From an uncultured Gammaproteobacteria bacterium (GTDB taxonomy: Bacteria; Patescibacteriota; Microgenomatia; Levybacterales; UBA12049), in assembly GCA_965230895.1 (NCBI GenBank), contig OZ246394.1, positions 1,441,887-1,505,886 on the forward strand: a stretch of 64,000 bases of DNA, in the 5' to 3' direction. Shown piece by piece: positions 20,426 through 48,300 of this stretch. The notes under the pieces were generated by a model. The model was not told the origin of the DNA, made no database searches, and saw nothing but the letters and a program-made list of their open reading frames with translations. How positions within the stretch are numbered: position 1 is the first letter of the stretch; every line of letters begins with the position of its first letter. The position numbers were made by a program, and so were the translations under genes.

Positions 20426-20432
20426 AGTGTAT

Positions 20433-22426: not shown

Positions 22427-22443
22427 AATGGTGTGATGCGTTT

Positions 22444-28300: not shown

Positions 28301-31300
28301 TCAAATGTCTTAACCTCATCAACACTTGGTTCTAGTGTCACTGCATCTTCATTGACATCGGTTGGTACATTGACTGGTGGTTCAATTGCCTCAGGATTTG
28401 GTACTATCGCTACTGCCAACACCATCACTGGTACAACGTTGAATGGCACAACTGGGATCAATACAGGTGCAGGTGGTGGAACGCAAAGAATTGACACTTC
28501 TGGTAACCTTACAAATATCGGAACAACCCAATTGAATGGCATCACTTATACATGGCCAGGTTCAGCGGGAGGAAGCAACAATGTTCTAACTTCTGATGGC
28601 AGTGGTGGTTTGAGTTGGAATGATGTAACTACATTACCAGGCGTAGGTGATATAACAGCAATTGGAGATGTTCTTTCTGGCCCTGCATTCACTGCTGGTG
28701 GTACGCAAGGAACCTCTTTGTACTTCTATGATGCAGATGGACGGGGACAACTTACTATAGCGAACCTAACTGCTGCTCGAACATATACATTACCTGATGC
28801 TTCCGGCACAATCTGCCTTGATTCTGGGAACTGTGCAGGATCAGGTGGTGGGATTGTTGGTACAGGTACAGCGGGTCAATTAGCTTTCTTTAATGGTACA
28901 GGTACAATAACATCTGAGACTTCAGGCTTTGCATGGGATGCAACAAATAAAAAGCTTGGCATTGGTACGGATACTCCAACAGGCAAGCTTACAGTTTCTG
29001 GTGCAGCTGCTGGGAAAGCGTTAGCTATATTTGATGAGCTTGGTGATCAGGACATATTCTCAGCTTCAGCTTCAGGAATTACACAATTGAGATTAGCTCG
29101 AAATGGTGACTTGGCAATTGAAGGAATGCTTTCTGATCTTACGCAAAATGCATTAACAGTGAATGACAACTTGAATTTAGTCTCAGGCAACGCATTCCAG
29201 ATAAATGGCACAAATGTTTTGAGCTCATCGACACTTGGCTCAGGGGTTGTTAGCTCCTCATTGACTTCCGTTGGAGCTCTTTCATCGGGTTCAATTGCAA
29301 ATGGGTTTGGCAGTATCTTTACTTCAAATACTATTCAAGGTAGTGACATCACTGCTTCTGGAACAACAGGATTTACTGCTTCCGGCAATGGTGCTGGTTT
29401 AACCTTCTCAGGCACGGGTAATCATAGCATAAGTGCATCATCCGGAACCCTCCAGATCGGAGCCGCGACGTTGACTGGTGACTTAACTGGTAACAGCCAA
29501 AGTATCGTCGGAGTAAACAATTTGTCTGCGAGTGGCACAATTACTTTTGGAGGTTTGTCGACAGGGATTGTAAAGAGTAACGGCTCTGGTATCCTTTCTT
29601 CAAGCGCAGTCAACCTAGCTTCAGGTGATATCACTGGTACGCTTGGAGTTGCAAATGGTGGTACAGGTATAACTTCAGTTGGTGGTGCTGGTGGAGTAGC
29701 TTACTCCAATGGATCAACCTTTGCCTTCACAGCAGCAGGATTAAGTGGTCAGGTGTTAGTTTCAAATGGTACAGGCGCACCTTCATGGACTGACCCATCA
29801 ACGCTCGGAACAAATTATTGGCAACGAAATTCAGGTTTGCTTGCACCTCTTAATATAGCTGATGATTTGGCTGTTGGTGGATCAAGTACAGGATCAGCGA
29901 AGTTCCAGATCTTTGGCGGGACAGGTAATGCTTCAACTTCAGGTACGCTAACGTTCAATACTGCAGGCACTATCCAGACAACCAATAATCAAACCTTAAC
30001 CTTCGGAGGCGCGAGTACCGGCAATATCGTCTTCTCACCATTAAATGGTGCGGGTACTGTATTAGTTAATGGTAGTATGAATCTTTCTTCAGGTAATACA
30101 TATCAGATTAATGGAACAACTGTGTTATCTGCAACAACTCTTGGGACGGGAGTTGTCAATTCTTCGCTTACAAATGTCGGAATTTTGACTGGAGGCTCTA
30201 TTGCTTCCGGATTTGGAACAATCGCTACTGCCAATACAATTACCGGTACTACTATAAATGGAACGACTGGAATTAATACCGGTGCAGGAGCTGGTACACA
30301 ACGAATTACTAATAATGGTAATTTGGTTAATATCGGAACAACCCAATTAAATGGTGTAACGTATACCTGGCCAAGTGCAGATGGATCATCTGATTATGTG
30401 CTGACAACTGACAGCAGTGGTGGATTAACATGGAAGAATGTAACATCTGTCGGTGGAGCAGGTGATATAACAGCGATTGGAGATGTCACTTCAGGAGCGG
30501 CATTTACAGCTGCTGGTACACAAGGAACCTCTTTGTATTTCTATGATACAGATGGACGTGGTCAAGTAACCATTGCAAACCTCACAGCGCCTCGAACATA
30601 CACATTGCCTGATGCTTCCGGCACCGTTTGTCTCGATTCCGGTAACTGTGCTGGATCTGGTGGTGGTTTGACGGGAAGTGGAACTGCGGGACAAGTTGCA
30701 TTCTTCAATGGGACTGGTACTTTGACATCTGAAACATCAGGATTTGCTTGGGATGCAACAAATAAGAAGCTTGGTATTGGTACAAATACTCCAACCGGTA
30801 AATTGACGGTTTCTGGAGGTGCGACAGGAAAAGCACTTGCAGTCTTCGATGAAACAGGTGATCAGGATATCATTACTGCGTCTGCGTCAGGTACAACACA
30901 GTTTGTTCTTAACCGAAATGGTAATCTCGCAATTGAAGGTCAGCTTTCCGATCTCTCTCAGAATACACTTACTGTTAATGACAATTTGAACCTCACAACC
31001 GGAAATGAGTTCCAAATCAACAGCGCAAGCATCTTGAGTGCTTCAACTCTTGGTTCAAGTGTCATCAATTCATCTTTGACGTCAGTTGGAGCTTTGACGA
31101 GTGGCTCTATTGCTTCAGGCTTTGGTACTATATTAACAACTAATACCATCCAGGGTTCAGATATTACCGCATCAGGAGCTACAGGGTTTACCGCTTCTGG
31201 TAATGGAGCTGGATTGACGTTCTCAGGCACGGGTAATCATATCGTAAGTGCATCATCTGGAACACTCCAATTTGGTGCAGCCACATTGACTGGTGCAATC

Positions 31301-34300
31301 ACTGGAAATGGCCAAAATGTCACTGGCTTGAACAATCTTTCAGCTGGTGGAACGATCACATTTGGTGGACTTTCTACAGGAGTCGTCAAGAGCAACGGTT
31401 CAGGCGTTCTTTCATCAAGTGCGATTGGCTTAAATACAGGCGATGTTACGGGAACACTTCCAGTTGGCAATGGTGGAACTGGCCAAACAAGCTTCACAAC
31501 CAACGGAGTAGTATATGGTAATGGTTCAAGTGCGTTGTCCGTAACATCCGCACCAACTGGTGGACAAGTACTTCTCGGGAACAACTCCGGAGTTCCAACA
31601 TTCACCACTATTTCAGGTGGTGTAACTATTAGTAATACTGGTGTTGCAACGATTGCATTATCATCTTCAGGCGATACCGGTAATACAAGTTCAAACTCAG
31701 GATTGGAATTCAATACAACTGATGGATTATCACTCCTTAGAGGTTGTGCAAATGACGAAATCCTTAAATGGAATGATTCCTCAAAGACATGGGTATGTGC
31801 GACTGATGCTGGTGGTTCTGGATCTGCTGGTACTATTAATGTTCAGAATAATGAAGTTGGGATTGGATCCAATGTCGATACAATTGACTTTGGTACAGAC
31901 TTTACTGTCGCAGCATCTCCATCAAATGAAGCAAATGTCTCAATCGCTGATGATGTCTTGGATTTCTCAGAATTCATCGACAACATGACATTGGATGCAA
32001 ATACAAGCATTGCTACAGCGAACTTTAACTTAACACTCGGAACAAACGCTGGGACAGGCGGAGTCGTTGTTTCTCCAAATGCAGGTGGTAATGCAGCCTT
32101 GATCGTTAACAAGCAGGGAACAGGTGATATCTTCACGGCTTCTGCTTCAGGTACAACCCGATTGACCTTGAGCAATTCTGGTAACTTAAATATTGTTGGT
32201 GGTAGTTATCAAATTGGTGGTACAAATGTTTTGAGTAGTAGCACCCTTGGATCAGGTGTCATAGCTTCTTCTTTGACAAGTGTTGGGGCATTGAACTCCG
32301 GTTCAATAACTTCAGGCTTTGGAGCAATTGATACAGGAACTGATGCTATCTCTGGTGGAGACATCACTGCAACTGGAACGACTGGCTTTACCGCTTCTGG
32401 TAACGGCGCAGGTCTCACATTCTCAGGAACAGGTAACCATTCAATTTCAGCTTCAGCTGGAACCTTGCAGTTGGGCGCAACCACATTGACCGGAGCAATC
32501 ACAGGAAATGGTCAAAATGTTACAGGTTTGAACAATTTCTCAGCTGGCGGAACGGTAACCTTTGGAGGATTTACAACCGATGGCGGCTTACTCTACACAA
32601 ATGGTTCAGGCGTTCTCGCTCAGACATCTGCGGGGACAGGCGGACAATGTTTGGTCTCCAACGGTGGTGGCGCACCAACATGGGGAGCATGTGCTGGTGG
32701 TTTGGCTAATTATTGGAATTTAGCAAATGGTGTTATTACACCACAGAATTCAACTGTTGATTTCTTAATTGGTGGCCAAGCTACAAGTTCAGCAAAGTTC
32801 GCTGTCTTAAATGTTAATTCAGGAACACCAACAGCATCTGTCTCAGCTGGAGCGACAGGTGGTCTTTCAATCGCAGCAGATGGCACAATTGGCACAACAA
32901 ATCGACAATCATTAACTCTTGGTAACAGTTCAACAGGTAATATCGTCTTGAATGGATTTGGAGCTGGTATCGTTAAGACCACTGCTTCAGGTGTACTCTC
33001 AAGTTCAGCACTTAATTTAGCTTCAGCAGAAGTTACTGGTACACTTGGTGTCGGCAATGGTGGAACTGGCCAAACAAGCTTCACAACAAATGGCGTTGTC
33101 TACGGAAATGGTTCAAGTGCGTTGTCTGTAACCTCTGCGCCAACTGGCGGCCAAATCTTGATGGGCAATAACTCTGGAGTTCCTACATTCACAACCGTTT
33201 CAGGTGGCCTTACCTTGAGTGATACAGGCGTTGCTTCAATTGTCTTAACTTCATCAAACGATACTGCGAACACGAGCTCTAATTCAGGACTGGAGTTCAG
33301 TACAGCAAATGGCTTGTCATTGCTTCGGGGATGCAACAATGGCCAGATCTTGAAATGGAATGAAACTTCAAAGCTTTGGGAATGTGGTTCTGACGCTGGT
33401 GGAACCGGTGGCCCTGCAGGTGTTGTCAATGTTGAGAACAATGACTCAGGTGTTGGTACAGATGTTGATACCATTGATTTCAGTTCAGATTTCTTGGTCA
33501 CAGCATCTCCATCAACAGAAGCAAATGTTTCAATTGCTGATGATGTTATTGACTTCACAGAACTTGCTGATAGCTTGAGCCTTGATGCTGCAACACAAAT
33601 TGCCTTAAATAACTTCAACCTCACACTCGGAACAAACGCTGGTACAGGTGGAGTTATTGTTGCTCCAAATGCTGGCGGCAATGCTGCATTAATCATCAAC
33701 AAGCAGGGGACAGGCGACATCTTTACAGCTTCAGCTTCAGGTACCACTCGATTGGCTTTGACAAATAGTGGAGACTTGAACATCATCGGTGGCGCATATC
33801 AGATTGGTGGTACAAGTGTCTTGAGTAGTAACACGCTTGGTTCAGGTGTAGTTAATTCATCTTTGACAAGTGTTGGTGCATTGAACTCCGGTTCAATAAC
33901 TTCAGGCTTTGGAGCAATTGATACAGGTACAGATAATATCTCCGGAGGCAATCTCACTGCTACAGGAACGACTGGTTTCATCGCTTCAGGCAATGGTGCA
34001 GGTTTGACATTCTCAGGCACAGGCAATCATGACATCACAGCATCTGGTGGTACACTCCGATTGGGTGCAGCGACATTGACTGGGGCAATCACAGGAAACG
34101 GTCAAAATGTCACTGGTATTGCGAACCTGGGTGCAACCGGAACTGTAACCTTTGGCAGCTTCACAACAGATGGTGGTTTGCTCTACACAAATGGTTCAGG
34201 CGTAGTCGCACAAACTGCACAAGGCACAGCTGGTCAATGTCTTCTCTCAAATGCAGGTGGCGCACCAACATGGGGTTCATGTACTGGCGGCTTAGCTAAT

Positions 34301-37300
34301 TATTGGAACCAAAATAACGGTGCATTGTCTGCAATGAATTCTACCGTTGATTTGCTTGTCGGTGGACAATCATCCGCTTCAGCAAAGTTTGCTGTCTTGA
34401 ATGTTAACTCAGGAACACCAACAGCATCTGTATCAGCTGGAGCAACTGGTGGTATCTCAATTGCAGCGGATGGAACAATCGGTACAACAGCCCGCCAATC
34501 ACTTACACTTGGCAATAGCACCACAGGCAACATTGTCTTAAATGGATTTGGAGCTGGCATAGTGAAGACCAGTGCTTCAGGCGTTCTTTCATCAAGTGCG
34601 ATCGGTTTGAATACAGCGGATGTCACTGGTACCTTGCCAGTTGGTAATGGTGGTACTGGAGCAACATCGTTTACAGCCGGTGGTGTCCTTTATGGAAATG
34701 GTTCAAGTGCAGTAGCAGCTTCTTCTCAAGGAACAGCTGGCCAAGCATTACTCTCCGGCGGTACTGGCGCACCAACATGGACAACTGGGACACTTTCACT
34801 CGCTGGTAATTTCACAACGGCAGGTGCAAATGCTTTGACACTTACCACAACTGGCGCAACAAATGTCACGCTTCCAACCACCGGAACGCTTGCCACATTG
34901 GCTGGTACTGAGACGCTCAGTGGTAAGACACTCACTGCTCCACGAATTGCAAATGGTGGATTCATCGCTGACGCCAATGGTAATGAACAATTGATCTTCA
35001 ATACAACAGCATCAGCAATCAACGAATTAACGCTCACCAATGCAGCGGCAAGTGGTGTCGTTACCCTCGCTGCAACAGGCGGTGACACTAATATTCCATT
35101 TGCAATCGATGCAAAGGGGACGGGAGAACTTAGATTGAATGGAACCGGAACTGGTAACATATTGCTTGGTGGTGGATTCGGATCAACAGGTTGTACGCTT
35201 ACAAATTCATCTGGAGCATTTGCATGTAACGGCGCAATCACAGGTTCAAATATCTCTGGTTCAACTTCAGGAACCAACACTGGTGATCAGACAATTACCT
35301 TGACTGGTGATGTCACGGGAAGTGGTACAGGTTCATTTGCGACAACAATCGCGGACAATTCAGTCGATGGTACAGATATTGCACTAGGCTCAGATACTGC
35401 GGGTGATTTAATGTACTACAACGGAACTGATTGGGTCCGATTAGCTGCAGGTACTGGAAACCAAGTGTTGCATTCCGGTTCAACACCATCTTGGGGTGCA
35501 CTTGATTTGACGACTCAAGTGACAGGAACTCTTCCAATTGCCAATGGCGGTACAAATTCAACTGCGACACCAACCAATGGTGGTATCGCATATGGTACTG
35601 GCACAGCATTTGCCTTTACTTCTGCCGGAACCGGTGGACAATGTCTCCAATCAAATGGAGCCGCTGCACCGACATGGGGAACTTGTACAGGAGGATTGGC
35701 TAACTACTGGAATCTCTCAAATGGTACTTTGGCCCCAGTAAATACAACACTTGATCTTTTGGTAGGTGGGACAAGTTCATCTTCAGCGAAATTTGCAGTT
35801 TTGAATGTTAATTCAGGAACACCAACAGCGTCAGTCTCAGCTGGTTCAGCTGGCGCAGCATACTTAACAGCAGCTGGTGCATTGCAAACGACTGCAAATC
35901 AAACACTCTCTCTTGGTGGTAACACAACTGGCAACATAGTCTTGAATGGTGATGGCAGTGATCGAGTCGGTGTTGGTGTTTCAACTCCAGTTGCTATGTT
36001 TAATATTGGTGAATACTCAGATTCTGTTGTTTCTCTTGCTCTTGGAAACGATGCAAATGCAGCTAATTATGGTTTAGCTGCGTTCAATAATAACTTAAAG
36101 CTTGTTGCTCCTTCAGGATTTAGATTTATGACAGGCACACCAGGTGGAACTGAAGTAATGACTATCACTGGAGGTAATTTGGGTGTTGGAGTAACTTCTC
36201 CAACCGCAAAGCTTGATGTTAACGGAGCAGCATCCGTCTCAGGTTCATTAACCTTCCGAACTGGAGCAGGCACAATTCAAACGACTGCAAATAACACATT
36301 AACGCTTGGTGGTAATACAACAGGAAACATCGTCTTCAACCCATTGAACGGAGCAGGCACAGTCCGAATCACATCGTTGGCTAACTGTAACACGATTGAT
36401 ACTGACGCAAATGGTGTTCTCTCCTGTGGAACTGATGAGAGTGGTGGAGTTCAGAACTACTGGAATCTTTCAAATGGAGCACTCTCTCCAGTCAATAGTA
36501 CCGCTGATCTTTTAGTTGGTGGGGCAGCTTCATCATCAGCAAAGTTTGCAGTTCTGAATGTGAACTCAGGTACACCAACAGCATCTGTATCAGCTGGTTC
36601 AGCAGGCGGTGCATCATTAACAGCAACCGGTGTCCTGGGGACAACAGCGCGCCAATCCTTAACGTTGGGTAACAGTACAACCGGTAACATCGTCTTGAAT
36701 GGATTCACGACTGGCGTGGTAAAGAGCAATGCTTCAGGCGTTCTTTCATCAAGTGCAATCGGTTTGAATACAGCGGATGTCACTGGTACCTTGCCAGTTG
36801 GTAATGGTGGTACTGGAGCAACATCGTTTACAGCCGGTGGTGTCCTTTATGGAAATGGTTCAAGTGCAGTAGCAGCTTCAACACAAGGTACAAGTGGGCA
36901 AGTGCTTCTTTCCGGAGGGACAGGCGCTCCAACATGGACAACTGGTACATTGACCTTGGCGGGCAATTTCAGTACATCAGGTGCAAATGCATTGACGCTT
37001 ACAACAACAGGTGCAACTAATGTGACTTTGCCTACAACTGGTACATTGGCAACGCTTGCTGGTACAGAAACACTCAGTGGTAAGACACTCACAGCGCCAC
37101 GATTTGTAAATGGTGGATTCATCGCTGATGCCAATGGCAATGAACAATTAATCTTTAATACGACAGCATCAGCAATCAATGAATTGACGTTAACGAATGC
37201 CGCTGCTAGTGGAGTTGTCACTTTGGCAGCAACAGGTGGAGACACCAACATTCCATTCGCAATTGATGCAAAGGGGACGGGAGAACTCCGATTGAATGGA

Positions 37301-39358
37301 ACAGGAACCGGTAATATCTTGCTTGGTGGTGGATTCGGCTCAACAGGGTGTACGCTTACAAATTCATCTGGAGCATTTGCATGTAATGGAGCGATCACAG
37401 GTTCAAACATTTCTGGTTCAACTTCTGGAACAAATACTGGCGACCAGACGATCACGTTAACAGGAGACGTTACTGGATCAGGCACAGGATCTTTTGGTAC
37501 AACCATTGCAGATAATGCTGTTGATGGTACAGACATCTCACTTGCTTCTGAGGCACAAGGCAATATCATGTACTTCGATGGAACTGATTGGGTACGATTG
37601 GCAAATGGTACAGGCAATCAAGTGCTTCACTCCGGTACAACTCCATCATGGGGAGCAGTGGATCTCACAACTCAAGTTACTGGGACACTTCCAATCGCAA
37701 ATGGTGGTACAAATTCAACAGCAACTCCAACCAATGGCGGAATCGCTTATGGAACTGGAACTGCATTTGCATTCACAAGTGCAGGAAGCGGTGGACAATG
37801 TCTCCAATCAAATGGAGCAGCAGCTCCAACATGGGGATCATGTGGCGGTGGTATTTCAAATTACTGGAATATCAACCAAGGCACAATTGCTCCTGTAAAT
37901 ACAACACTCGACTTGTTGGTTGGTGGCACAAGTTCATCATCAGCGAAGTTTGCAGTATTGGGCATAAATTCAGGCACACCAACAGCATCTGTTTCAGCAA
38001 CAGCTTCAGGCAATGGACTCTCACTTGGTGGCGATGCAGTGATCCAGTCACTTCGAAATAACACATTAACTATCGGTGGAAATACGACTGGCAACATCAC
38101 ATTGTCACCTTTGAATGGAAGTGGTACAGTCACTTCAACTGGCGATCTTAACCTCGCTACTGGTAAAGTATTCCAGATTAATGGAGCATCAGTTCTCTCA
38201 TCAACAACCCTTGGTACAAGTGTCGTATCATCATCTCTTACAACAGTTGGAGCTTTGAATGCAGGTTCAATTACATCCGGATTTGGAGCAATTGATGTCG
38301 GCTCAGATAACATTGCTGGAGGAGACATCACTGCAAGTGGAACTACTGGTTACATCGCTTCAGGCAACGGTGCTGGCTTAAACTTCTCAGGAGCAAGTAC
38401 CCATACAATTCAAGCGTCAGCAGGTACATTGCAGATCAACGCTTTCACCATGGGTGGAGCAATTACAGGGGGAGGAAATAACATCACTGGCCTTGGGCAG
38501 CTTACTGTTGATAACTTAAGACTTGATGGAAACACATTAGATACAACTTCTGGTGATCTTACAATTGCAGCAAGTGGTGGTGATATCATCTTCTCAGATA
38601 CAAATACACTTAATATTGGTGGCAATGTTTCAGACGTTGCATACAATATCATTGGCGACACTATCTCAGGTGCAAATGGAAATATGAATTCAGACGATGA
38701 TTTGTTCGTCGAAGGAGATTTGCAAGTTGCTGGTACACTCTTTGCGAATGTCACAACAGGTTTGGCTGCAAATTCACTCGTCTTCACTGGAACCAATGGT
38801 GTGCTTTCTGTTGATAGCTCTAACTTCTCAGTGAATAACACAACCAAGAGAATTGGTATTGGTACAAATTCACCTTTGGCATCGCTTGATGTTCGAGCAA
38901 CTTCTGGTACTGTGCCAGCAGCATCAGTTTCAGGTACAACTGCAATGGCAGCAATGATCGTCGATAATAATGGTGTAGGTGATCTCTTCACAGCAAGTAA
39001 GTCTGGTGCAACGAAGTTCGTAGTCACAAATGCAGGGAGAGTTGGTATTGGGACAGGGACACCATCAACGACTGCATTACTTGATGTTGAAGGACAGATT
39101 CAATCAAGTGAATTACAACTGACATCAGGAGGAGTAATCGGATGGAATTATTACAATAATGGACTTGATCGATACCTCGCAACAGGAGAAGCATTCCAAT
39201 GGTGGCAGAATGGAGCAAACCTTAACCTTATGTCAGCAGGGAGTGGAGCAGCAAACAGTCAGATCGTCTTCAAGACAGCAATGACTATCAATGCAAGCGG
39301 CAATGTCGTCGTAAACAATGATGGTAACGCACAGGATTTCCAGGTTAAAAGGAGATAA
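25319..39358 (+). CDS. Giant surface protein 1, part 1: N-terminal MerR-type HTH, one TM helix, about 4,500 aa of nested tandem G/T/S/N-rich repeats. The ORF-track start at 25289 is a TTG; the ATG at 25319 matches the start context of paralog 2.
   Basis: LTIQEAAKLLGVSPTTLRRWEERKVLLPYRTAGNQRRYSREQL fits the MerR HTH pattern (TLRxWE..G.L.P.R...G.R.Y). TM LSPMAGVFAALVVFVGFVLAASLAP. Long uninterrupted frame. Paralogous to 45391.. and 54607.. Confidence 0.85.
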   Translation: MNESLLTIQEAAKLLGVSPTTLRRWEERKVLLPYRTAGNQRRYSREQLLAFKKNGYRPVQMASVAPSDAPKVNEPIVTPMHQAQASVDQLITPQSPVQTTANPILVTQTQNEANVQVSDIVSQAQERVVSGYKMPSRLPNVRELSPMAGVFAALVVFVGFVLAASLAPTWGEDLDRLGKGFPRDGASAQQVLAANDNTPLFVLKVNVPSVFGKKASFLDSVDISKGLTVGGVATMSGGIITNNADINAGTGRLTASNVVYSVLAGNNISITGDPQNPTISADFGGGVVSSFQGQSGAVSLLQGSGIGLDGLTITNTGVLSVQGQSGAVNFTGGAGITLNNLTITNSDPGSAQKIFSTFNIDGTPVAASSNTDTFNFAAGSGITLSTNTTDKILTISANGGATSQWTTTGSDIYYNLGNVGIGNSAPGTTLDVTGDGRFSGTLTVSGLSTGIVKADGSGLLSTSALNLAGGASEITGVLPVANGGTGLSSIPTNGQLLIGNGTDYTLGNLTGTVNQITISNGAGSITFSTPQDIHTAASPTFATMNLTNSTNQLVFGTGTTGTISMDPLTTNRTYTFPDASGTVCLTSGNCSGGGGGGISGAGTTNYIAKFTSSSGISDSSIYDNGKVGIGTTSPEGLLTVSGGPAGKALAVFNYTGSGQNILTASASGTTRLTINSSGDLNIIGGAYQINGTSVLTSNTLGSGIVNSSLTSVGALDSGSITAGFGNINVGMDSISGGDITSVGPVGFVSTGNGAGLSFSGTGNHDITASSGVLRLGAVTLTGALTGNGQNVTGLNNLSAGGTVTFGGLGTGIVQSNGSGVLSSGALNLAGGASYVTGVLPVTNGGTGLNSFNTGDLIFASASNTLAALPIGTEGQVLAVSGAGTPTWISTGTLNYWQRANGALAPLNISDDLLVGGVSTASAKFQIFGISGNASTSGTFTFNTAGVIQSTNNHGITIGGSTTGNITLSPQNGSGTVTSTGNLNLLSGKVYQINGSNVLTSSTLGSSVTASSLTSVGTLTGGSIASGFGTIATANTITGTTLNGTTGINTGAGGGTQRIDTSGNLTNIGTTQLNGITYTWPGSAGGSNNVLTSDGSGGLSWNDVTTLPGVGDITAIGDVLSGPAFTAGGTQGTSLYFYDADGRGQLTIANLTAARTYTLPDASGTICLDSGNCAGSGGGIVGTGTAGQLAFFNGTGTITSETSGFAWDATNKKLGIGTDTPTGKLTVSGAAAGKALAIFDELGDQDIFSASASGITQLRLARNGDLAIEGMLSDLTQNALTVNDNLNLVSGNAFQINGTNVLSSSTLGSGVVSSSLTSVGALSSGSIANGFGSIFTSNTIQGSDITASGTTGFTASGNGAGLTFSGTGNHSISASSGTLQIGAATLTGDLTGNSQSIVGVNNLSASGTITFGGLSTGIVKSNGSGILSSSAVNLASGDITGTLGVANGGTGITSVGGAGGVAYSNGSTFAFTAAGLSGQVLVSNGTGAPSWTDPSTLGTNYWQRNSGLLAPLNIADDLAVGGSSTGSAKFQIFGGTGNASTSGTLTFNTAGTIQTTNNQTLTFGGASTGNIVFSPLNGAGTVLVNGSMNLSSGNTYQINGTTVLSATTLGTGVVNSSLTNVGILTGGSIASGFGTIATANTITGTTINGTTGINTGAGAGTQRITNNGNLVNIGTTQLNGVTYTWPSADGSSDYVLTTDSSGGLTWKNVTSVGGAGDITAIGDVTSGAAFTAAGTQGTSLYFYDTDGRGQVTIANLTAPRTYTLPDASGTVCLDSGNCAGSGGGLTGSGTAGQVAFFNGTGTLTSETSGFAWDATNKKLGIGTNTPTGKLTVSGGATGKALAVFDETGDQDIITASASGTTQFVLNRNGNLAIEGQLSDLSQNTLTVNDNLNLTTGNEFQINSASILSASTLGSSVINSSLTSVGALTSGSIASGFGTILTTNTIQGSDITASGATGFTASGNGAGLTFSGTGNHIVSASSGTLQFGAATLTGAITGNGQNVTGLNNLSAGGTITFGGLSTGVVKSNGSGVLSSSAIGLNTGDVTGTLPVGNGGTGQTSFTTNGVVYGNGSSALSVTSAPTGGQVLLGNNSGVPTFTTISGGVTISNTGVATIALSSSGDTGNTSSNSGLEFNTTDGLSLLRGCANDEILKWNDSSKTWVCATDAGGSGSAGTINVQNNEVGIGSNVDTIDFGTDFTVAASPSNEANVSIADDVLDFSEFIDNMTLDANTSIATANFNLTLGTNAGTGGVVVSPNAGGNAALIVNKQGTGDIFTASASGTTRLTLSNSGNLNIVGGSYQIGGTNVLSSSTLGSGVIASSLTSVGALNSGSITSGFGAIDTGTDAISGGDITATGTTGFTASGNGAGLTFSGTGNHSISASAGTLQLGATTLTGAITGNGQNVTGLNNFSAGGTVTFGGFTTDGGLLYTNGSGVLAQTSAGTGGQCLVSNGGGAPTWGACAGGLANYWNLANGVITPQNSTVDFLIGGQATSSAKFAVLNVNSGTPTASVSAGATGGLSIAADGTIGTTNRQSLTLGNSSTGNIVLNGFGAGIVKTTASGVLSSSALNLASAEVTGTLGVGNGGTGQTSFTTNGVVYGNGSSALSVTSAPTGGQILMGNNSGVPTFTTVSGGLTLSDTGVASIVLTSSNDTANTSSNSGLEFSTANGLSLLRGCNNGQILKWNETSKLWECGSDAGGTGGPAGVVNVENNDSGVGTDVDTIDFSSDFLVTASPSTEANVSIADDVIDFTELADSLSLDAATQIALNNFNLTLGTNAGTGGVIVAPNAGGNAALIINKQGTGDIFTASASGTTRLALTNSGDLNIIGGAYQIGGTSVLSSNTLGSGVVNSSLTSVGALNSGSITSGFGAIDTGTDNISGGNLTATGTTGFIASGNGAGLTFSGTGNHDITASGGTLRLGAATLTGAITGNGQNVTGIANLGATGTVTFGSFTTDGGLLYTNGSGVVAQTAQGTAGQCLLSNAGGAPTWGSCTGGLANYWNQNNGALSAMNSTVDLLVGGQSSASAKFAVLNVNSGTPTASVSAGATGGISIAADGTIGTTARQSLTLGNSTTGNIVLNGFGAGIVKTSASGVLSSSAIGLNTADVTGTLPVGNGGTGATSFTAGGVLYGNGSSAVAASSQGTAGQALLSGGTGAPTWTTGTLSLAGNFTTAGANALTLTTTGATNVTLPTTGTLATLAGTETLSGKTLTAPRIANGGFIADANGNEQLIFNTTASAINELTLTNAAASGVVTLAATGGDTNIPFAIDAKGTGELRLNGTGTGNILLGGGFGSTGCTLTNSSGAFACNGAITGSNISGSTSGTNTGDQTITLTGDVTGSGTGSFATTIADNSVDGTDIALGSDTAGDLMYYNGTDWVRLAAGTGNQVLHSGSTPSWGALDLTTQVTGTLPIANGGTNSTATPTNGGIAYGTGTAFAFTSAGTGGQCLQSNGAAAPTWGTCTGGLANYWNLSNGTLAPVNTTLDLLVGGTSSSSAKFAVLNVNSGTPTASVSAGSAGAAYLTAAGALQTTANQTLSLGGNTTGNIVLNGDGSDRVGVGVSTPVAMFNIGEYSDSVVSLALGNDANAANYGLAAFNNNLKLVAPSGFRFMTGTPGGTEVMTITGGNLGVGVTSPTAKLDVNGAASVSGSLTFRTGAGTIQTTANNTLTLGGNTTGNIVFNPLNGAGTVRITSLANCNTIDTDANGVLSCGTDESGGVQNYWNLSNGALSPVNSTADLLVGGAASSSAKFAVLNVNSGTPTASVSAGSAGGASLTATGVLGTTARQSLTLGNSTTGNIVLNGFTTGVVKSNASGVLSSSAIGLNTADVTGTLPVGNGGTGATSFTAGGVLYGNGSSAVAASTQGTSGQVLLSGGTGAPTWTTGTLTLAGNFSTSGANALTLTTTGATNVTLPTTGTLATLAGTETLSGKTLTAPRFVNGGFIADANGNEQLIFNTTASAINELTLTNAAASGVVTLAATGGDTNIPFAIDAKGTGELRLNGTGTGNILLGGGFGSTGCTLTNSSGAFACNGAITGSNISGSTSGTNTGDQTITLTGDVTGSGTGSFGTTIADNAVDGTDISLASEAQGNIMYFDGTDWVRLANGTGNQVLHSGTTPSWGAVDLTTQVTGTLPIANGGTNSTATPTNGGIAYGTGTAFAFTSAGSGGQCLQSNGAAAPTWGSCGGGISNYWNINQGTIAPVNTTLDLLVGGTSSSSAKFAVLGINSGTPTASVSATASGNGLSLGGDAVIQSLRNNTLTIGGNTTGNITLSPLNGSGTVTSTGDLNLATGKVFQINGASVLSSTTLGTSVVSSSLTTVGALNAGSITSGFGAIDVGSDNIAGGDITASGTTGYIASGNGAGLNFSGASTHTIQASAGTLQINAFTMGGAITGGGNNITGLGQLTVDNLRLDGNTLDTTSGDLTIAASGGDIIFSDTNTLNIGGNVSDVAYNIIGDTISGANGNMNSDDDLFVEGDLQVAGTLFANVTTGLAANSLVFTGTNGVLSVDSSNFSVNNTTKRIGIGTNSPLASLDVRATSGTVPAASVSGTTAMAAMIVDNNGVGDLFTASKSGATKFVVTNAGRVGIGTGTPSTTALLDVEGQIQSSELQLTSGGVIGWNYYNNGLDRYLATGEAFQWWQNGANLNLMSAGSGAANSQIVFKTAMTINASGNVVVNNDGNAQDFQVKRR
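25328..25480 (+). other. MerR-type helix-turn-helix domain at the cytoplasmic N-terminus of giant protein 1 (equivalents at about 45400-45550 and about 54616-54760)
   Basis: TIQEAAKLLGVSPTTLRRWEERKVLLPYRTAGNQRRYSREQLL fits the MerR/HTH_17 pattern. Conserved in all three paralogs and immediately followed by about 100 aa of linker and one TM helix. Confidence 0.7.
34589..35840 (+). repeat. Near-identical 1.25-kb segment, copy A (pairs with 36746..37995; offset 2157 nt, 719 codons)
   Basis: Long runs of identical nucleotides, e.g. tcatcaagtgc.atcggtttgaatacagcggatgtcactggtaccttgccagttggtaatggtggtactggagcaacatcgtttacagccggtggtgtcctttatggaaatggttcaagtgcagtagcagcttc in both copies. Confidence 0.85.
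36746..37995 (+). repeat. Near-identical 1.25-kb segment, copy B
   Basis: See copy A. Protein identity is above 95% over about 415 aa. Confidence 0.85.
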
Positions 39359-41111
39359 TGATGCCAATCTGTTATTCACCCAGGGATCAACAGATAGAGT
39401 TGGTATCGGGACAAATACTCCGTTAGCAAAACTTGATATCCGTGGAACACTTGGTACAACGACAGTAGCATCAGTTTCAGGAAATACTTCGAGAGCAGCA
39501 TTCCTCGTTGATAATAATGGAGTTGGTGATTTGTTTACTGCAAGTAAATCTGGTGCACGAAAGTTTGTTATCAATAATCAAGGATATCTTGGCTTGGGAG
39601 GCGCAAATGCTGATACAACAAATTATATTAGTGCCGCTAACTTTGCAGTCCAAAATGATGGGCAAGTTTACACAACAGGTCTTAATAATTACAGCTCAGG
39701 GAATAATGCTTACATCAACTTGGCTTTAACAGGTACAACTATCCAACGTAACGTTGCTGATGCCAATGCAGCATTGATTGTCCAACAGCTTAATGCTTCA
39801 AGTACAGGAGATATCCTTCAATTAGCAAACAGTGCTGGTACAGTTTTGAAAGTCACAAGAGGTGGTTCACTTGGTCTTGGTGCAACAACACCACTTGCAA
39901 CCTTTGATGTTCGGGGTAATTCTGGTACCACACCAGTTGCTTCAGTATCAGGGCTTACCTCAATGGCAGCATTGGTTGTAAATAACAATGGTGTTGGTGA
40001 TCTCTTTACAGCTTCTAAGTCTGGTTTGCCTAAGTTTACAATTAAAAATAACGGAAGAGTAGAAATCGGACAACAGGTAACCAATCCAAGTTCAAATGAT
40101 ACGCTGACGATAAAGAACATCGCAGGTTCAAATACAGACTTCTCTATGGAAGATGGAAATGGTGTAAATCGATGGACATGGTTCGCAAATACAAGTGGCG
40201 TTACTGGTTTCTATGACGCATCAAATGCATTGACGCCATTCTATATTGAAGAGGGTGCAGGCAATAACTCAATTACAATTGATTCTACTGGCAATGTCGG
40301 TATTGGTGTAGCAAATGCTACGCAGGCGCTTGAACTTTCTTCCGGAAAGATTATCCAAATGAATTCAGGTCAAATTCAGGATTATGGTGATATCACTATG
40401 AAGTTGGATGCTGATAACAATGGCTCAAATGACTTCGAGATCTTGAACGGTGGTAGCACTTCCGTCTTCAAGGTAACAGAAGCTGGTGTTGTAACTATCA
40501 CTGATGGAAGTGGGAATGGATTCAGCTTCGATCCAGCAACTGGTCCAACATATTCAGGTACAGCAAGACCACCAAGAAAGGTTACACTAAGTGCAGAATA
40601 TCCAGGAGCTATCCTAACAGCATCTGGTTCAGCGACAACAAATGGACTTATGACATCTGATGCTTCTCCATCTGCAGCAACTCTAGCAAGATTTATGAAC
40701 TACTATGAATGGAATTCCAGCCAGACATCATATCAAGATTATACAGTTGCGGTTAAAGTAACATTACCTGATGATTTTGTAGCCTGGGAAACATCAAATG
40801 CAATTCAGATTTATTACAACACTGAAGCTGGCACAAACACAAGTAATAAGCTAGACGTTCGAATTCAGAATGCTGATATCGGCCTAACGCTTGCAGAATA
40901 CTCGACTCCAGTGGCATTACGTACAAATCAAAATACGTCATCAAAGGCATGGACTGCAATTTCTATTGATGACTCAGAAATTGATAGAGGAGTGAATCAG
41001 GATCTTGATATCGCTGGGGATACAGCAATTATTTTCTTGAAGATGTATTCTAAGGATAATAACTATGTCCAAGTTGGAGATATAATCCTCAATTACAGAT
41101 CGAATAAGTGA
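39318..41111 (+). CDS. Giant surface protein 1, part 2 (same repeat family continues in the +1 frame; unique about 230-aa C-terminal domain). Probably one gene with 25319..39358, interrupted by a frameshift near 39346.
   Basis: The translation continues the LDxRGxxGTTxVASVSG...NNGVGDLFTASKSGxxKF repeat units seen upstream. The 41-nt overlap of the two frames lies at an A4 homopolymer (gttaaaaggag). Confidence 0.7.
   Translation: MMVTHRISRLKGDNDANLLFTQGSTDRVGIGTNTPLAKLDIRGTLGTTTVASVSGNTSRAAFLVDNNGVGDLFTASKSGARKFVINNQGYLGLGGANADTTNYISAANFAVQNDGQVYTTGLNNYSSGNNAYINLALTGTTIQRNVADANAALIVQQLNASSTGDILQLANSAGTVLKVTRGGSLGLGATTPLATFDVRGNSGTTPVASVSGLTSMAALVVNNNGVGDLFTASKSGLPKFTIKNNGRVEIGQQVTNPSSNDTLTIKNIAGSNTDFSMEDGNGVNRWTWFANTSGVTGFYDASNALTPFYIEEGAGNNSITIDSTGNVGIGVANATQALELSSGKIIQMNSGQIQDYGDITMKLDADNNGSNDFEILNGGSTSVFKVTEAGVVTITDGSGNGFSFDPATGPTYSGTARPPRKVTLSAEYPGAILTASGSATTNGLMTSDASPSAATLARFMNYYEWNSSQTSYQDYTVAVKVTLPDDFVAWETSNAIQIYYNTEAGTNTSNKLDVRIQNADIGLTLAEYSTPVALRTNQNTSSKAWTAISIDDSEIDRGVNQDLDIAGDTAIIFLKMYSKDNNYVQVGDIILNYRSNK
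39340..39356 (+). other. Putative +1 frameshift site in giant gene 1 at an A4 run (ccaggttaaaaggagataa)
   Basis: Deleting one A converts ...DFQVKRR* into ...DFQVKGDNDANLLFTQGS..., continuous with ORF 39318..41111. Confidence 0.6.
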
Positions 41112-41245: not shown

Positions 41246-44200
41246 ATGCATACTGCCTTATTAATGCAAGAATCACGCCTCAATCATCTCAAACGTATCG
41301 TGGCGGTCGTGAATATCATGACACTTGCTTTGGGACATTTTGCTTTGCCTGTTCATGCAGCAGTTGGTGCAAGTACTTCTGCCCAACCAACAGCTTCTCA
41401 AACAAAAGCTCCCGTCAAAAAGGTTGCAGGAATATCTAATGAAATCAACCGATTGACGTTGGCTGATGATGCTTACTCCAATATCTCTGCGAAACCCCCA
41501 ATCCCGGTAACTGTGGATGTAATGGAAAAAGAAGATTACAAAGCCGATGAACCAGTCACTGTCACAGTGAACAATCCGGATCGGGATGCATTTACGGCCA
41601 AAGTTGTTAATGCAAAAGGTGAAGAAATTCCTGTTGAAAAAAGAATTGTGGACCGGGGAAGTGAAGCCGAAGTGCTTTTGGCGAGTACCAATCAATTTGT
41701 TCCCGGCAAATTTACCATTGAGGTTACTGATGCCAAAGGCAATATATCCAAACAGGATTTCACCTGGGGAGTCCTGGCTTTGAATACAGATAAGGCAACG
41801 TACAAACCGCAGGAAACCGCAGCAATTTCCATGGCTGTTCTTGATGACAAAGGAGAAATGGTTTGTAATGCGGATGTCACGCTCAAAATTACCAACGAGC
41901 AAACCTATATGCAAACGACTTTGTCTACCGAAAACGGTAAGATCGAAATAAATAAAGAATGCTCGACTAAAATCCTGACAACTGTCCCTGATTATGAAGC
42001 CACATATGTCGTTGGCGACGAAGGTAAATATGCGATGGAGCTGCAGGCAAAAACAGAAAAGGGAAGTTACACAATCCATGATGAATTCAATGTCAAAGCG
42101 CAAACACCTTTCGAGATCCGACGAACAAGTGCAACCCGTTTGTATCCACCTCTTACATATCCGATGAATATTGAAGTCACTGCAAGTGAAGATTTTGAGG
42201 GAACTGTCACAGAAACTGTGCCTGATAGTTTTACCATTACACCAGTCGATCAACAATCATCCTATGATGGATTAAAGACTGTGTATTTGGATGGCAAAGA
42301 TCCTGAGAAAAGGATTGAGCAAAATGTCCTGGGTGCAAGTATGTCCGCATTGCAAATGCCTTTTGACGGAAGCTATGCTATCACCCAAGGTTTTGGAGGG
42401 TATATGACCGATGGGGAATTGCGTAATTTCTACTCACAATATGGTCTCTCTGGACATGATGGAGTGGATTTCGCTTTGCCGATGGGAACGCCTCTTTATG
42501 CTGTGGACGATGGCAATGTCGTTTTCTCTGGCCCTGGAGATTATGGTATCACCATCATCATCCAACATGCCTGGGGGAAATCCTATTACGGCCATTTAAG
42601 TAAGGCAGAGGCTCCAAAGGAATCCTCTGTAAAAAAAGGCTCGCTCATCGGATACTCAGGAAATACAGGTGAATCAACCGGACCCCATTTACATTTCGGG
42701 ATGAAGCCAGAGAATCCTGACATGAATAATGGCTATTCTGGGAAAATCGATCCACTTCCATATCTCAATCTTACCGGCAATGGCATCAGACCTCCAGCTT
42801 TGGAACAGGCAATCAATTCATCAGGAGTTCTGTCTGCAACAACTTCGGCTGAAAGTGAAGCAACACATTCCGCAGACAAACCAAACCTGACCGAACCTGT
42901 CGCTCCAAGTGCTTCAGCATCAGCAACGCCTGAGCAGACGAAGGCACTCAATGAAGAAAAGGCTGCACCGTTTACTGTCTTGAGTCAGGAAATAGCAAAT
43001 GAAGTCGCAGATTCTGAGACGAGTGTGACTGAAAAAGTAAAAGTCCTGAAGTGGAAGGTCTCTTTGAAGAAGGGCGAGAAGACGACATTGAGTTACGCAT
43101 ATAAAGCACCTGAAGTAAGTCCACAATTTTATCTTTTAGGTTCTGTAAAAATTTTTAACAAGGATGAGCAGCTTGTCTTCGATGATGTGCGTAAATGGCA
43201 GCTTGCAGGCGACGCAATCGGTGCAAAGTGGTACGACTACAATTGGTTATATCGCAAGGAGATCTCAATTGATAGCTCTCAGGTTCCTTCTACACAGACT
43301 AATTTCCCTGTCTTAGTTAGTTTGACAAGTGATAGTAATCTCTCTACCAGTTCACAAGCTGATGGAGACGATATTCTCTTTACCGATGGAACTGGTATAA
43401 CGAAGCTTTCGCACGAAATCGAAAGCTATAGCTCAGGTACGTTGGTTGCTTGGGTGGAAGTGCCAAGTGTTTCCTCTTCATCGAACACAAGTATTTATAT
43501 GTACTACGGCAATGCAACAGTATCTAGCCAACAAGATGTAGCAAATACTTGGAATAATGGTTCTAATCAGTTTAGATTCGTACAGCATTTAAATGATGGT
43601 AACGTAAGCACAGTTGTTGATTCGACAACAAACGGGAATAATGGTACGAAAATAGTTTCTGCTTCGCAGCCATCTAATTATGCGAGTGGCAAAATAGGAG
43701 CAGCAATGGATTTCGCAGGAAATTCAGCGGGTGCTACAGGTATCACAATCTCTGGCTCACCAGCCAATATTCTTGACGTTACAGATAGTGACTATACATT
43801 CAGCGGATGGTTTAATCCTGATACAATACCCGCTGCCACAGGATTGAGAGATTACGCAGTTGTAGGAAGAAGAGGAAATTTCAGTGGATTAAGTTACGCT
43901 GCGAATCCTGATTTCTTTGCTACCCTTCGCACGACGAGTGCCTTTAACGCCAATACTGCTTCTAATGTCTATGCTACGGGCAGCTGGCATTACGTTGTCC
44001 AGACCGTTAATAATACTTCTAAAGTTCTTTCAATTTATGTTAATGGTTCATTAGTAGATTCTACTTCCTATACCGGAACTTTGCGCAACTATTCAAGTAC
44101 TGAGCCTTATATGATTGGAAGAGCAGATCCAAATGGTACATGTAATACAGATTATGTTTGGTGTGCTGATGGGAAGATCGATGAGGCAAGGCTTTCCAAT

Positions 44201-44371
44201 GTCGCTAGATCAGCGGATTGGATAGCAACCGAGTATAACAATCAAAATTCTCCTGGAACCTTCTACACAGTCGGTTCTGAAGAAACAAAAGTGTATGCGC
44301 CATTGCCTGCTGAGCTTATGCGTCATGGGAAATTCTTTGATACTAGGGGAGAGCAGCCATTCGTTTTCTAG
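41246..44371 (+). CDS. Secreted multidomain protein: N-terminal anchor/signal, Ig-like beta domains, M23 (LytM-type) metallopeptidase domain, DUF2341-like domain and C-terminal LamG/concanavalin-A-like lectin domain
   Basis: M23 motifs GHDGVDFALPMGTPLYAVDDG and GYSGNTGESTGPHLHFGM (HxxxD, HxH). WYDYNWLYRKEISID...NFPVLVSL resembles DUF2341. C-terminal DGKIDEARLSNVARSADWI is a typical LamG_3 ending. Confidence 0.8.
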   Translation: MHTALLMQESRLNHLKRIVAVVNIMTLALGHFALPVHAAVGASTSAQPTASQTKAPVKKVAGISNEINRLTLADDAYSNISAKPPIPVTVDVMEKEDYKADEPVTVTVNNPDRDAFTAKVVNAKGEEIPVEKRIVDRGSEAEVLLASTNQFVPGKFTIEVTDAKGNISKQDFTWGVLALNTDKATYKPQETAAISMAVLDDKGEMVCNADVTLKITNEQTYMQTTLSTENGKIEINKECSTKILTTVPDYEATYVVGDEGKYAMELQAKTEKGSYTIHDEFNVKAQTPFEIRRTSATRLYPPLTYPMNIEVTASEDFEGTVTETVPDSFTITPVDQQSSYDGLKTVYLDGKDPEKRIEQNVLGASMSALQMPFDGSYAITQGFGGYMTDGELRNFYSQYGLSGHDGVDFALPMGTPLYAVDDGNVVFSGPGDYGITIIIQHAWGKSYYGHLSKAEAPKESSVKKGSLIGYSGNTGESTGPHLHFGMKPENPDMNNGYSGKIDPLPYLNLTGNGIRPPALEQAINSSGVLSATTSAESEATHSADKPNLTEPVAPSASASATPEQTKALNEEKAAPFTVLSQEIANEVADSETSVTEKVKVLKWKVSLKKGEKTTLSYAYKAPEVSPQFYLLGSVKIFNKDEQLVFDDVRKWQLAGDAIGAKWYDYNWLYRKEISIDSSQVPSTQTNFPVLVSLTSDSNLSTSSQADGDDILFTDGTGITKLSHEIESYSSGTLVAWVEVPSVSSSSNTSIYMYYGNATVSSQQDVANTWNNGSNQFRFVQHLNDGNVSTVVDSTTNGNNGTKIVSASQPSNYASGKIGAAMDFAGNSAGATGITISGSPANILDVTDSDYTFSGWFNPDTIPAATGLRDYAVVGRRGNFSGLSYAANPDFFATLRTTSAFNANTASNVYATGSWHYVVQTVNNTSKVLSIYVNGSLVDSTSYTGTLRNYSSTEPYMIGRADPNGTCNTDYVWCADGKIDEARLSNVARSADWIATEYNNQNSPGTFYTVGSEETKVYAPLPAELMRHGKFFDTRGEQPFVF

Positions 44372-45390: not shown

Positions 45391-48300
45391 ATGAACAACG
45401 AGTATCTAACAATTCAAGAAGCTGCAACTTTTTTCCGCGTTTCGACAAGGACGCTCAGACGCTGGGAAGAAAAAGGTTACCTTACGTCTCACCGGACGTT
45501 TGGGAACCAAAGACGCTACAGTAAAGCGCAGCTATCCCAATTGCTGGGTGCTGCCGCAGCAGCGGGTGAGGCTGATGTCCAAGTTTCTGAGCAGACAAAT
45601 ACCGCAAAGCCATTTGGATTTCAATCCCAGCCGCAGTATGTCCCTCAAAAAGCCTCAATAGCACATCCAAACCCGATTCCAGTTCATTCGATTCACAAGC
45701 AAATTCAGCCTGAACCTACTCATATCCAAACACTCAAACCTGAGCATAGATTCCATAAGCCTCAATCTGCCATGACATTTGGTGCTGTGATTGCAATAAT
45801 TCTTTTGTCGACGATTGCAGTTATAGGATTTTCGAATGCGCAAACGATTGATGAAAAAAGTCAAGCATTTATCTCATTTCTGAAACCAGGAGAAACGGTC
45901 GAGCAAGTAGGTGGACAAAGTGTTCTTGCTGCAGAAGATAGAATCTCTTCTTTGCAGTTGCAAGTTGATGTGCCAGCTGTATTCGCAAAAAAAGTGACCT
46001 TTCTCGATGCATTTGAGATCAAGAATAGTTTGACAGTGAACAGTGCTTCAAACCTCTTTGGTGGAATTAAAACAAACAACAAAGATATCGATGCAGGAAC
46101 TGGCCAACTGACTGCATCAAACGTGGTCTATTCAGTTCTTTCCGGTACAAATATTTCCATTACCGGTGATCCTCAAAACCCAGTAATCTCCGCACAAGGT
46201 GGAGTAAATTCTGTACAAGGTTTAACTGGCACAATTGCCTTTACCTCAGGAAATGGAATTGATCTTGATGGGTTGGAGATTGTGAACACTGGTGTGCTTT
46301 CATTGCAAGGAGAAAGCGGCGATGTAGCATTTACAGGTGGAACTGGAATCGGCGTGAATGGTCTCACCATCACCAATACTGATCCAGGTTCTGCTCAAAA
46401 AATCTTTGGAACGATTCGCGTTGGATCAACAAATATTTCAGCTGGGTCAAATACAGATACGTTCACAATTTCAGCCGGTGCAGGGATAACATTGGCTCCA
46501 GATGCTGGGAACAAGACATTGACCATCACGAGCAATGCAGCTGGAGTATTGAGTGGCATGACGACAAACGGAGTCTTGTACGCAACCTCTGCAACGACAG
46601 CAACTTCAACTGGGGAAGCTCCAAATGGCTTTATCCTCAAATCAATGGGGCCAGGAAATGCACCACAATGGGTTGCTCCAGGAACAGTTCTTGGATATCT
46701 GCCGTTTGATTTCCTTACGGATGGAACCAATACCACTGCCAACATGATCGTTGGGACCGGAGCAAGTCTTGGGTACACAGGAAGTGGGACGATTAATGCT
46801 TCCTCTTTACAAAATGCGACTTGGGTTGCTCCAGGTGCAATCGGTTCATCAACGCCAAATACCGGTGCATTCACTGCTCTTACAGCAACGACGTTGAATG
46901 GTTTGACTGTCACAGCAAACGGTGCTAATACTCTCAACATAGCTACAGGGAAGACAATTACACTTAACAACTCTCTCTCACTTTCAGGAACAGATGGGAC
47001 TGTCTTCACATTCCCATCAGCAAACGACACACTTGTTGGCCGAAATAGTACAGATACCTTGACCAACAAAACTATTGCTGCGGGATCAAATACCATAACC
47101 GGTTTGACAAATTCCAATCTTTCAGGATCCGCAGGGATTACCAATGCAAATCTCCAAAATTCATCACTTACCGTGACTGCAGGGAGTGGCTTGTCTGGTG
47201 GAGGATTGGTAAGTCTCGGAGGATCGGTTTCACTCCAAAATGCCGGTGTTACATCCGCAACCGCAGGGACTGGAATTTCAATCAACGTTGCGACAGGGGA
47301 TATCACTGTCACCAACAATGGCGTGACATCTGCAGTTGCTGGAACAGGTATCGGCGTCAGTGGTCCGACTGGAGCGATTACGTTTACAAACAACGGAGTG
47401 ACTTCATTGACAGGGACCGCAAACCAAGTAAATGTTTCAGGAAGTACTGGAGGCATTACGTTGAGTTTGCCTCAGAACATTCATACAGCAGCGACTCCAA
47501 CATTTGCAGGATTGACGCTTTCAAATCTCACGGCAAATGGCGGGATCTTATACACCAACGGCACAGGAACTGTTGCACAAACTTCTGTGGGATCGCCTGG
47601 TCAATGTCTCACTTCTAATGGAGGCGGTGCTCCATCCTGGAGTACTTGTGCAGGATCAAGCTATTGGAATCTTTCCAATGGAACACTCTCTCCAGTGAAC
47701 AATACATTGGATCTTTTAGTTGGCGGCACAAGTTCGAACTCCGCAAAATTTGCAGTTCTGAATGTTAATTCTGGAACACCTGTTGCATCAATATCAGCAG
47801 GATCTGCTGGAGCCGCTTATTTAACAGCAACTGGTACATTGCAAACCACTGCAAACCAAACACTCTCGCTTGGCGGCAATACAACTGGCAACATCATCTT
47901 GAATGGTGATGGGAGTAATAACGTTGGGATCGGCACTTTAAATCCAACGTTTGGTTTGGATGTAGCTACGGTAAATGGTGCACGGATACTCTTTGACGAT
48001 GGCTTGGGAGACCCTCGCATTCACTTCAGTCAAGTAGGAGATAATCCAACCCAAGATTTCTACCGATGGACAGGTTCTGGAAGTAATTATTTCGCTTCAC
48101 GATTTAATGTGAGTCCCGGAACAGGTGATGGGATTTTTAACATTCAGGGTGCAAATGATACAAACATGGGCTCGCATACTTTCTCTGATCTTTTGAGTAT
48201 CGTGCTGGGCGGACCAAATCAAGGAAACGTAGGTCTTGGTAACTCTGCTCCTTCACAATTTCTTGATATGGTTCGAAACCAGAACGAATCAACAATGGTA

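Follow-up and report, generated by a model that had tools for sequence, protein, structure and literature searches.

What has become of a giant surface-protein gene whose reading frame stops while the same family of repeats goes on in the next frame? This question is raised by a stretch of 64,000 nucleotides (hereafter, the window) from an uncultured bacterium, deposited as a gammaproteobacterium and placed by GTDB in Patescibacteriota (assembly GCA_965230895.1, contig OZ246394.1, positions 1,441,887 to 1,505,886 of the forward strand). An open reading frame (ORF) of 4,679 codons on its plus strand, here called ORF A, is overlapped at its end by ORF B (39318..41111), which lies in the +1 frame and has 597 codons. 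A preliminary description of the window took the two for a single gene that a +1 frame change divides within a run of four A residues (A4), and offered four causes: a sequencing or assembly indel, phase variation in a homopolymer, a programmed frameshift, or a recent pseudogenization. As described below, ORF A and ORF B are very probably two pieces of one ancestral gene, and a genuine, recent insertion of one nucleotide, which truncates the protein, is the probable cause.

One Ancestral Gene in Two Reading Frames

A check of the sequence bears out the coordinates of the two ORFs, the DFQVKRR end of ORF A and the overlap in the +1 frame. ORF A terminates in ...NDGNAQDFQVKRR (also written ...NNDGNAQDFQVKRR), its final codons being GTT AAA AGG AGA TAA, and the start of ORF B reads MMVTHRISRLKGDNDANLLFTQGSTDRVGIGT. 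Translation leaves TTG at 25289 open as an alternative start of ORF A to ATG at 25319. If one A is deleted, a single protein results that has 5,263 amino acids from the ATG or 5,273 from the TTG, close to the approximately 5,270 first proposed, and the trans-frame reading over the junction gives the peptide ...DFQVKGDNDANLLF... (also given as ...NAQDFQVKGDNDANLLFTQGSTDR). The 597 further codons originally counted are correct as the length of ORF B, but they include 11 codons of overlap, and only 586 lie past the junction. Because these 586 codons contain no stop in the frame of ORF B, versus 31 and 58 stops in the other two frames, ORF B is a real coding sequence and not a chance ORF.

Where exactly is the frame broken? 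The break falls inside a conserved motif of about 45 amino acids with the consensus DFRVEGDTDANLLFVDASTDRVGIGTNTP (in an extended form, G..VFNEAGADVDFRVEGDTDANLLFVDASTDRVGIGTNTP..KLDV.G), which is contiguous in one frame in 46 instances from 34 homologues. Frame 0 of the window gives GNVVVNNDGNAQDFQVK and frame +1 gives GDNDANLLFTQGSTDRVGIGTNTPLAKLDIRG, and the two joined together agree with the consensus at 33 of 49 positions; the motif of the tail-fibre-like family (DFRVEGDxDxNLLF...RVGIGT) is thus contiguous only in the fused reading. Homology pins the frame change precisely to the A-run, which lies between a Val codon (39344-46) and a Gly codon (39351-53). A fused query centred on the junction, searched against 5.8 billion protein clusters, retrieved 115 relatives, the names of whose sources include Patescibacteria group, Saccharibacteria and Saccharimonadales; judged by these names, the organism of the window probably belongs to the Patescibacteria. 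BLAST alignments cross the junction, with at least 15 amino acids aligned on either side, in 75 of 118 related sequences, the homologue P0072 has a near-identical DFQVKGDNEANLIYADAGTDRIGIGTNTP / DFQVKGDNEANLIY... stretch there, and the PHROG profile phrog_5906 aligns over it (E=3.5e-5). Apart from ORF A itself, none of the 118 relatives ends at the junction. The preliminary description had held that paralogues normally ending at the equivalent position would, together with uniform read support for A4, point to a genuine truncation rather than an error; no homologue ends there, and members of the family normally finish with the C-terminal domain that is found in ORF B. A gene labelled D was considered as such a paralogue, and it has repeat units without the junction motif and without the C-terminal domain. 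A recurrent split was also sought in homologues that start in the middle of a repeat on long contigs (P0021, P0016 and P0028), of which the case of metagenome locus L010 comes merely from a noisy assembly and the others are uninformative. No Pfam family was recognized at the junction or in ORF B, and genome contigs scanned with ORF B yielded distant relatives only, namely L003 (43%, for a portion of the query) and L004 (25%); an orthologous locus was not among them.

The two ORFs also complement each other in architecture. A membrane anchor is present only in ORF A, and the conserved C-terminal domain only in ORF B, which starts in the middle of the motif without a signal sequence. In the seven complete homologues (P0014, P0010, P0012, P0018, P0020, P0023 and P0085), a signal or anchor at the N-terminus is combined with the conserved domain at the C-terminus. 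The repeat unit (…LDxRGxxGTxPxASVSGxTxxAAxVVDNNGVGDLFTASKSG…) occurs three times in ORF A, at amino acids 2267, 2797 and 4552 of the fused protein, and twice in ORF B, at 4734 and 4891. The earlier statement that the repeats continue in the new frame therefore holds for these units, which are found in both ORFs, but not for the last ~215 amino acids, which form a distinct domain. Because the motif is contiguous in homologues, alignments span the junction and the architectures of the ORFs are complementary, we are highly confident from these comparisons that ORF A and ORF B derive from one ancestral gene, and the core claim of the preliminary description is thereby strongly supported.

What, then, does the 3' part of this gene encode? 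In 17 homologues, the C-terminal domain (about 210 amino acids) ends 2-3 amino acids from the C-terminus (E 1e-28 to 1e-68). An AlphaFold2 model built from 18 aligned sequences is an all-beta sandwich with a mean pLDDT of 82 and a pTM of 0.79. Foldseek matched it in the PDB to carbohydrate-binding modules (CBMs) of the types CBM61, CBM6, CBM4, CBM11 and CBM86, to receptor-binding domains of phage tailspikes and baseplates, and to adhesin domains of gingipains, with E values of 1e-5 to 1e-3 and modest TM-scores of 0.35-0.56. The model suggests that this domain may be the distal binding tip of a fibre, similar to a CBM or to a receptor-binding domain. Features of the gene are collected in Table 1.

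Table 1. Features of the split giant gene; positions are those of the window.
Feature	Position	Strand	Remarks
ORF A, 5' part of the giant gene	25319..39358	+	4,679 amino acids; ends DFQVKRR-stop within the conserved motif
MerR/HTH_17 helix-turn-helix, amino acids 5-54	25331..25480	+	PF00376 3.9e-12, PF12728 9.4e-12
Single hydrophobic helix, amino acids 147-168, MAGVFAALVVFVGFVLAASLAP	25757..25822	+	Presumed membrane anchor, read straight from the translation
Conserved fibre motif, GNVVVNNDGNAQDFQVK / GDNDANLLFTQGSTDRVGIGTNTPLAKLDIRG	39299..39446	+	Continuous only with one base skipped
Overlap of ORF A and ORF B, 41 nucleotides	39318..39358	+	From the first +1-frame ATG to the end of ORF A
A4 run, site of the frame change	39347..39350	+	With A3, the context would read GTT AAA GGA GAT AAT
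3' gene part, +1 frame	39351..41111	+	586 codons and stop; two VGDLFTASKSG units, then the C-terminal domain
C-terminal beta-sandwich domain, ~215 amino acids	40464..41108	+	Absent from the frame-0 product

Error, Switch, Recoding or Restart?

Is the extra A real? If the true genome had A3, the gene would be a single intact one of 5,263 codons, and it is to be noted that homopolymer indels are the commonest assembly error, that the downstream frame is fully intact, and that giant repetitive genes are often shattered in long-read metagenome assemblies. The syntenic locus L010, from such a noisy assembly, offers a picture of error-driven fragmentation, being broken into many short overlapping ORFs. 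The window, on the other hand, is otherwise clean: in more than 13,000 codons of giant genes (ORFs of 4,679, 2,855 and >3,130 codons) together with 21 intact housekeeping ORFs, this break is the sole one. Two Logan contigs, assembled independently from the single runs SRR14271365 (11,277 bp) and SRR14271372 (5,868 bp), encode precisely the protein of ORF B, have no mismatch to the window, A4 included, and are given the same 41-nucleotide overlap by gene callers; on the 1.61-Mb NCBI contig, the identical 4,679-amino-acid product of ORF A is called (P0116). The two run-level de Bruijn assemblies and the NCBI contig, from at least two read sets, all agree on A4, and accurate short reads are not prone to errors at a run of 4 nucleotides. 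The organism is represented by one clonal sequence in four runs (SRR14271359, SRR14271360, SRR14271365 and SRR14271372); a candidate strain difference downstream of argS in SRR14271359 proved to be a gene-calling artefact, the DNA being identical. No fused, A3-type protein variant was found among the 5.8 billion protein clusters. The base call is reproduced across assemblies and the DNA itself contains the break, and a sequencing or assembly indel has become quite improbable. Could the run instead be a switch, in which an A is gained and lost reversibly by strand slippage, so that the fibre tip is toggled within the population? Surface adhesins are typical phase-variable genes, the indel is located in a homopolymer, and two intact paralogous giant genes adjoin. 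Known contingency loci, however, use runs of about 7 nucleotides or more, and a tract of only 4 is too short for efficient phase variation. Nor is this run special in a gene that has 19 A4 and 20 T4 runs and in which no run exceeds 5 nucleotides, and only the A4 allele is seen in the two run-level consensus assemblies, while contigs of JGI metagenomes gave no match to an A3, A4 or A5 junction. Phase variation is thus extremely unlikely here.

Another possibility is that the frame is restored by the ribosome. In a programmed or selected +1 frameshift, tRNA-Lys would slip from AAA (39347-49) to AAA (39348-50) while the ribosome awaits the rare AGG. The slip would re-pair perfectly, AGG accounts for 6-9% of Arg codons and is the rarest or second-rarest of them, a 0-frame stop lies two codons downstream, and the frame of ORF B is intact. 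The need for a +1 shift and the nearby 0-frame stop recall prfB, the gene for RF2; in prfB, however, the stop is itself the A-site codon and a Shine-Dalgarno (SD)-like element 3 nucleotides upstream stimulates the shift, whereas here the stop is two codons off, no SD-like stimulator is found upstream at a prfB-like spacing, and the site is not conserved in homologues. An AGGAG does occur, but it comes after the slip site, and it arises simply from the displacement of K-G-D codons by one base. No stimulatory RNA structure was found either, the 100 nucleotides downstream folding like shuffled sequence (z=-0.58), and AAA_AGG is not avoided, for it occurs in frame two more times in ordinary genes of the window. 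All 34 homologues that bear the motif read it in one frame, and no orthologue has the same shift, which is a weak test as none is closer than 36% identity. Moreover, every feature of the site arises automatically if one A is inserted into GTT AAA GGA GAT AAT (V-K-G-D-N). A programmed shift, for which we find no positive support, is therefore unlikely, and it is equally unlikely that such a shift serves to fix the ratio of tip-less fibres (4,679 amino acids) to tip-bearing ones (5,263 amino acids). We give little credence also to the proposal that selection maintains A4 for +1 recoding at low efficiency, with rare-codon pausing, so that mostly 4,679-amino-acid fibres and a fixed minority of tipped, 5,263-amino-acid fibres would be made; if true, it would represent translational control of adhesin stoichiometry in an episymbiont of the Patescibacteria type, and the first recoded giant gene of such a kind. 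Finally, might the gene have undergone a functional fission, so that ORF B is translated alone from ATG 39318 or 39321 (MMVTHR/MVTHR, ~62 kDa) as a separate subunit? An in-frame ATG-ATG is present 29 nucleotides upstream of the junction, gene callers do call ORF B, and SD sequences are rarely used in this genome (an SD-like tetramer lies within 20 nucleotides of the start in 2 of 26 genes of the window, those at 13724 and 23162), so that a missing ribosome-binding site is not decisive. Against this, the start of ORF B falls midway through a conserved structural motif, and ORF B, unlike complete homologues, has no signal peptide or transmembrane segment; export of such a fragment seems unlikely from its sequence. 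No homologue begins at the start of ORF B, except for the window's own copies, and neither a promoter-like signal above background nor a terminator was found between ORF A and ORF B. An AAGGAG followed after 4-5 nucleotides by ATG(ATG), at 39349-39360, was considered as a restart site; it leads only into a 22-codon ORF in the third frame (39349..39426), which overlaps the stop of ORF A, and the AAGGAG-ATGATG most likely arises by chance from the K-G-D-N-D codons. Fission of the gene into two working parts is barely credible on this evidence.

A Probable Recent Insertion and the Loss of a Putative Fibre Tip

The explanation that we prefer is, as stated above, a genuine and recent insertion of one nucleotide, and among the four causes originally listed, pseudogenization or truncation of the 3' part fits best; we consider it probable. 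The ancestral gene would have encoded a membrane-anchored, tail-fibre-like surface protein of ~5,263 amino acids, composed of a cytoplasmic MerR-type helix-turn-helix (HTH), one transmembrane helix, a giant stalk of repeats outside the cell and a CBM-like beta-sandwich tip at the C-terminus. In this bacterial population, an insertion would then have changed A3 to A4 at 39347-39350, upon which triplet decoding would stop three codons on (AGG AGA TAA), and the product would be a protein of 4,679 amino acids, without the 586 C-terminal residues to which the putative binding tip belongs. At most a small proportion of ribosomes might restore the full length, by an unprogrammed +1 slip of tRNA-Lys on A_AAA_A with the rare AGG waiting in the A site. 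We infer that the insertion is not programmed and that the protein is made mainly in its truncated form.

Several points weigh against this explanation. The Logan runs probably come from the NCBI genome's own project, so that they provide independent assemblies but not independent populations. The A4 call rests on consensus assemblies, in which a minority A3 allele could be hidden. The next-best relative in the search of 5.8 billion clusters is only 36% identical, which leaves no close orthologue for a comparison with sister strains. Lastly, A_AAA_AGG has the ingredients of a spontaneous +1 shift site, and some read-through is plausible and possibly of biological relevance. Indeed, in E. coli, +1-nucleotide indels can be suppressed spontaneously at shift-prone heptamers, to an extent of 0.1-5% (PMC7022156), and a class of 'corrective' frameshifting has been recognized (PMC5009743). 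Low-level spontaneous +1 slippage on A_AAA_AGG, which would give a trickle of the full-length protein, is therefore plausible in this gene as well. The nearest parallel is a frameshift mutant of rpoB in E. coli (PMC7022156; reviewed in PMC5009743), which likewise has a 1-nucleotide insertion, a P-site tRNA that can re-pair in the +1 frame and a slow A-site codon; the gene in the window, however, is not essential, and suppression here is only a possibility.

How old could the insertion be? Among the possible substitutions in ORF B, 3.8% create a stop codon, and a nonsense mutation becomes more than 95% likely by ~4.4% neutral divergence. Because an untranslated ORF B would very probably have gained a stop by about 4% of neutral divergence, either the insertion is recent on an evolutionary scale or selection continues to act on the 3' part.

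Giant repetitive adhesin genes split by a frameshift have been documented before, namely those for BAP and BLP2 in Acinetobacter and the BAP pseudogene of Salmonella LT2 (PMC4647330). In those cases too, a single frameshift divides a very large, repetitive, adhesin-like gene into N- and C-terminal ORFs, intact relatives exist elsewhere, and error, truncation and compensatory frameshifting have been debated in the same way (PMC4647330). The present protein belongs to an unrelated family, with a tail-fibre-like motif and an HTH-transmembrane N-terminus in place of Ig-like repeats, and the bacterium, probably of the Patescibacteria, is uncultured and offers no series of strains. The frameshift itself is thus ordinary for a giant repetitive gene, and this is a new instance of it in an unrelated protein family. 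With phage tail-fibre or tailspike-like proteins that carry the DFRVEGDTDANLLFVDASTDRVGIG motif, the protein shares this motif, a repetitive stalk and a distal beta-sandwich domain, and several of the phage-like matches with this motif also carry Peptidase_S74 or Mtd_N domains. Unlike phage fibres, the protein of the window is chromosomal, ~5-10x longer and anchored by its HTH-transmembrane part, and it ends in a CBM-like domain instead of an S74 intramolecular chaperone.

For annotation, the two coding sequences should be joined as one frameshifted gene, and ORF B should not be regarded as a free-standing hypothetical protein of 597 amino acids. Biologically, a putative sugar-binding tip would be missing in this population from one of the three giant HTH-anchored surface fibres encoded in tandem, and such a loss may be an example of the strain-level on/off variation expected for structures that attach reduced-genome bacteria to a host or a substrate.

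Neighbourhood of the Giant Fibre Genes

The split gene (25319..41111; 5,263 amino acids when fused) is the first of three giant genes in tandem, the others being located at 45391..53958 (2,855 amino acids) and 54607..>63999 (>3,130 amino acids, running off the window). All three start with a MerR/HTH_17 domain, which in the first gene is followed after ~90 amino acids by the hydrophobic helix and then by the giant repetitive region, and both neighbours also contain the ASVSGxTxxAAxVVDNNGVGDLFTASKSG repeat. It is unusual for a giant extracellular fibre to be joined to a cytoplasmic HTH; this layout recurs in the syntenic metagenome locus L010 (6096..10019). About 90-100 nucleotides upstream of each of the three starts, a block CTTGACA-(8-9 nucleotides)-TTAATATATGTAGTAAT is found (25224-25268, 45292-45336 and 54518-54562), which looks like a shared promoter or operator and is perhaps a target of the HTH domains of the giant genes themselves. 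The first and second giant genes also have a common start context, CTGCCCAATGAAC.

Directly downstream of the split gene, 41246..44371 encodes a protein of 1,041 amino acids with Peptidase_M23, DUF2341 and Laminin_G_3 domains. The same combination adjoins giant genes of the MerR-HTH type in the unrelated metagenome contig of L010 (810..3972 and 19281..22844), and this co-occurrence suggests a conserved neighbourhood of a cell-wall hydrolase and a giant fibre. On another contig (L009; ENA ERZ25039549 contig_10310), three tandem repeat units of 1,254 bp lie between two giant genes at 5941..8988, where gene callers place only small minus-strand ORFs and just downstream of which P0021 begins in the middle of a repeat; these units may be another interrupted giant gene or an artefact of gene calling.

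Farther from the fibre genes, two adjacent proteins with type I dockerins are encoded at 10657..13720, one of them also with CBM_4_9 and an Fn3-like domain, and if a cohesin partner is lacking, dockerin proteins would not be expected in a Patescibacteria-like organism with a small genome. A TATAAT-like hexamer is present 7-13 nucleotides upstream of several genes of the window, for example, those at 5876(-), 16834 and 23157(-), which, together with the rarity of SD-like tetramers, suggests that many mRNAs from this region are leaderless or SD-independent.

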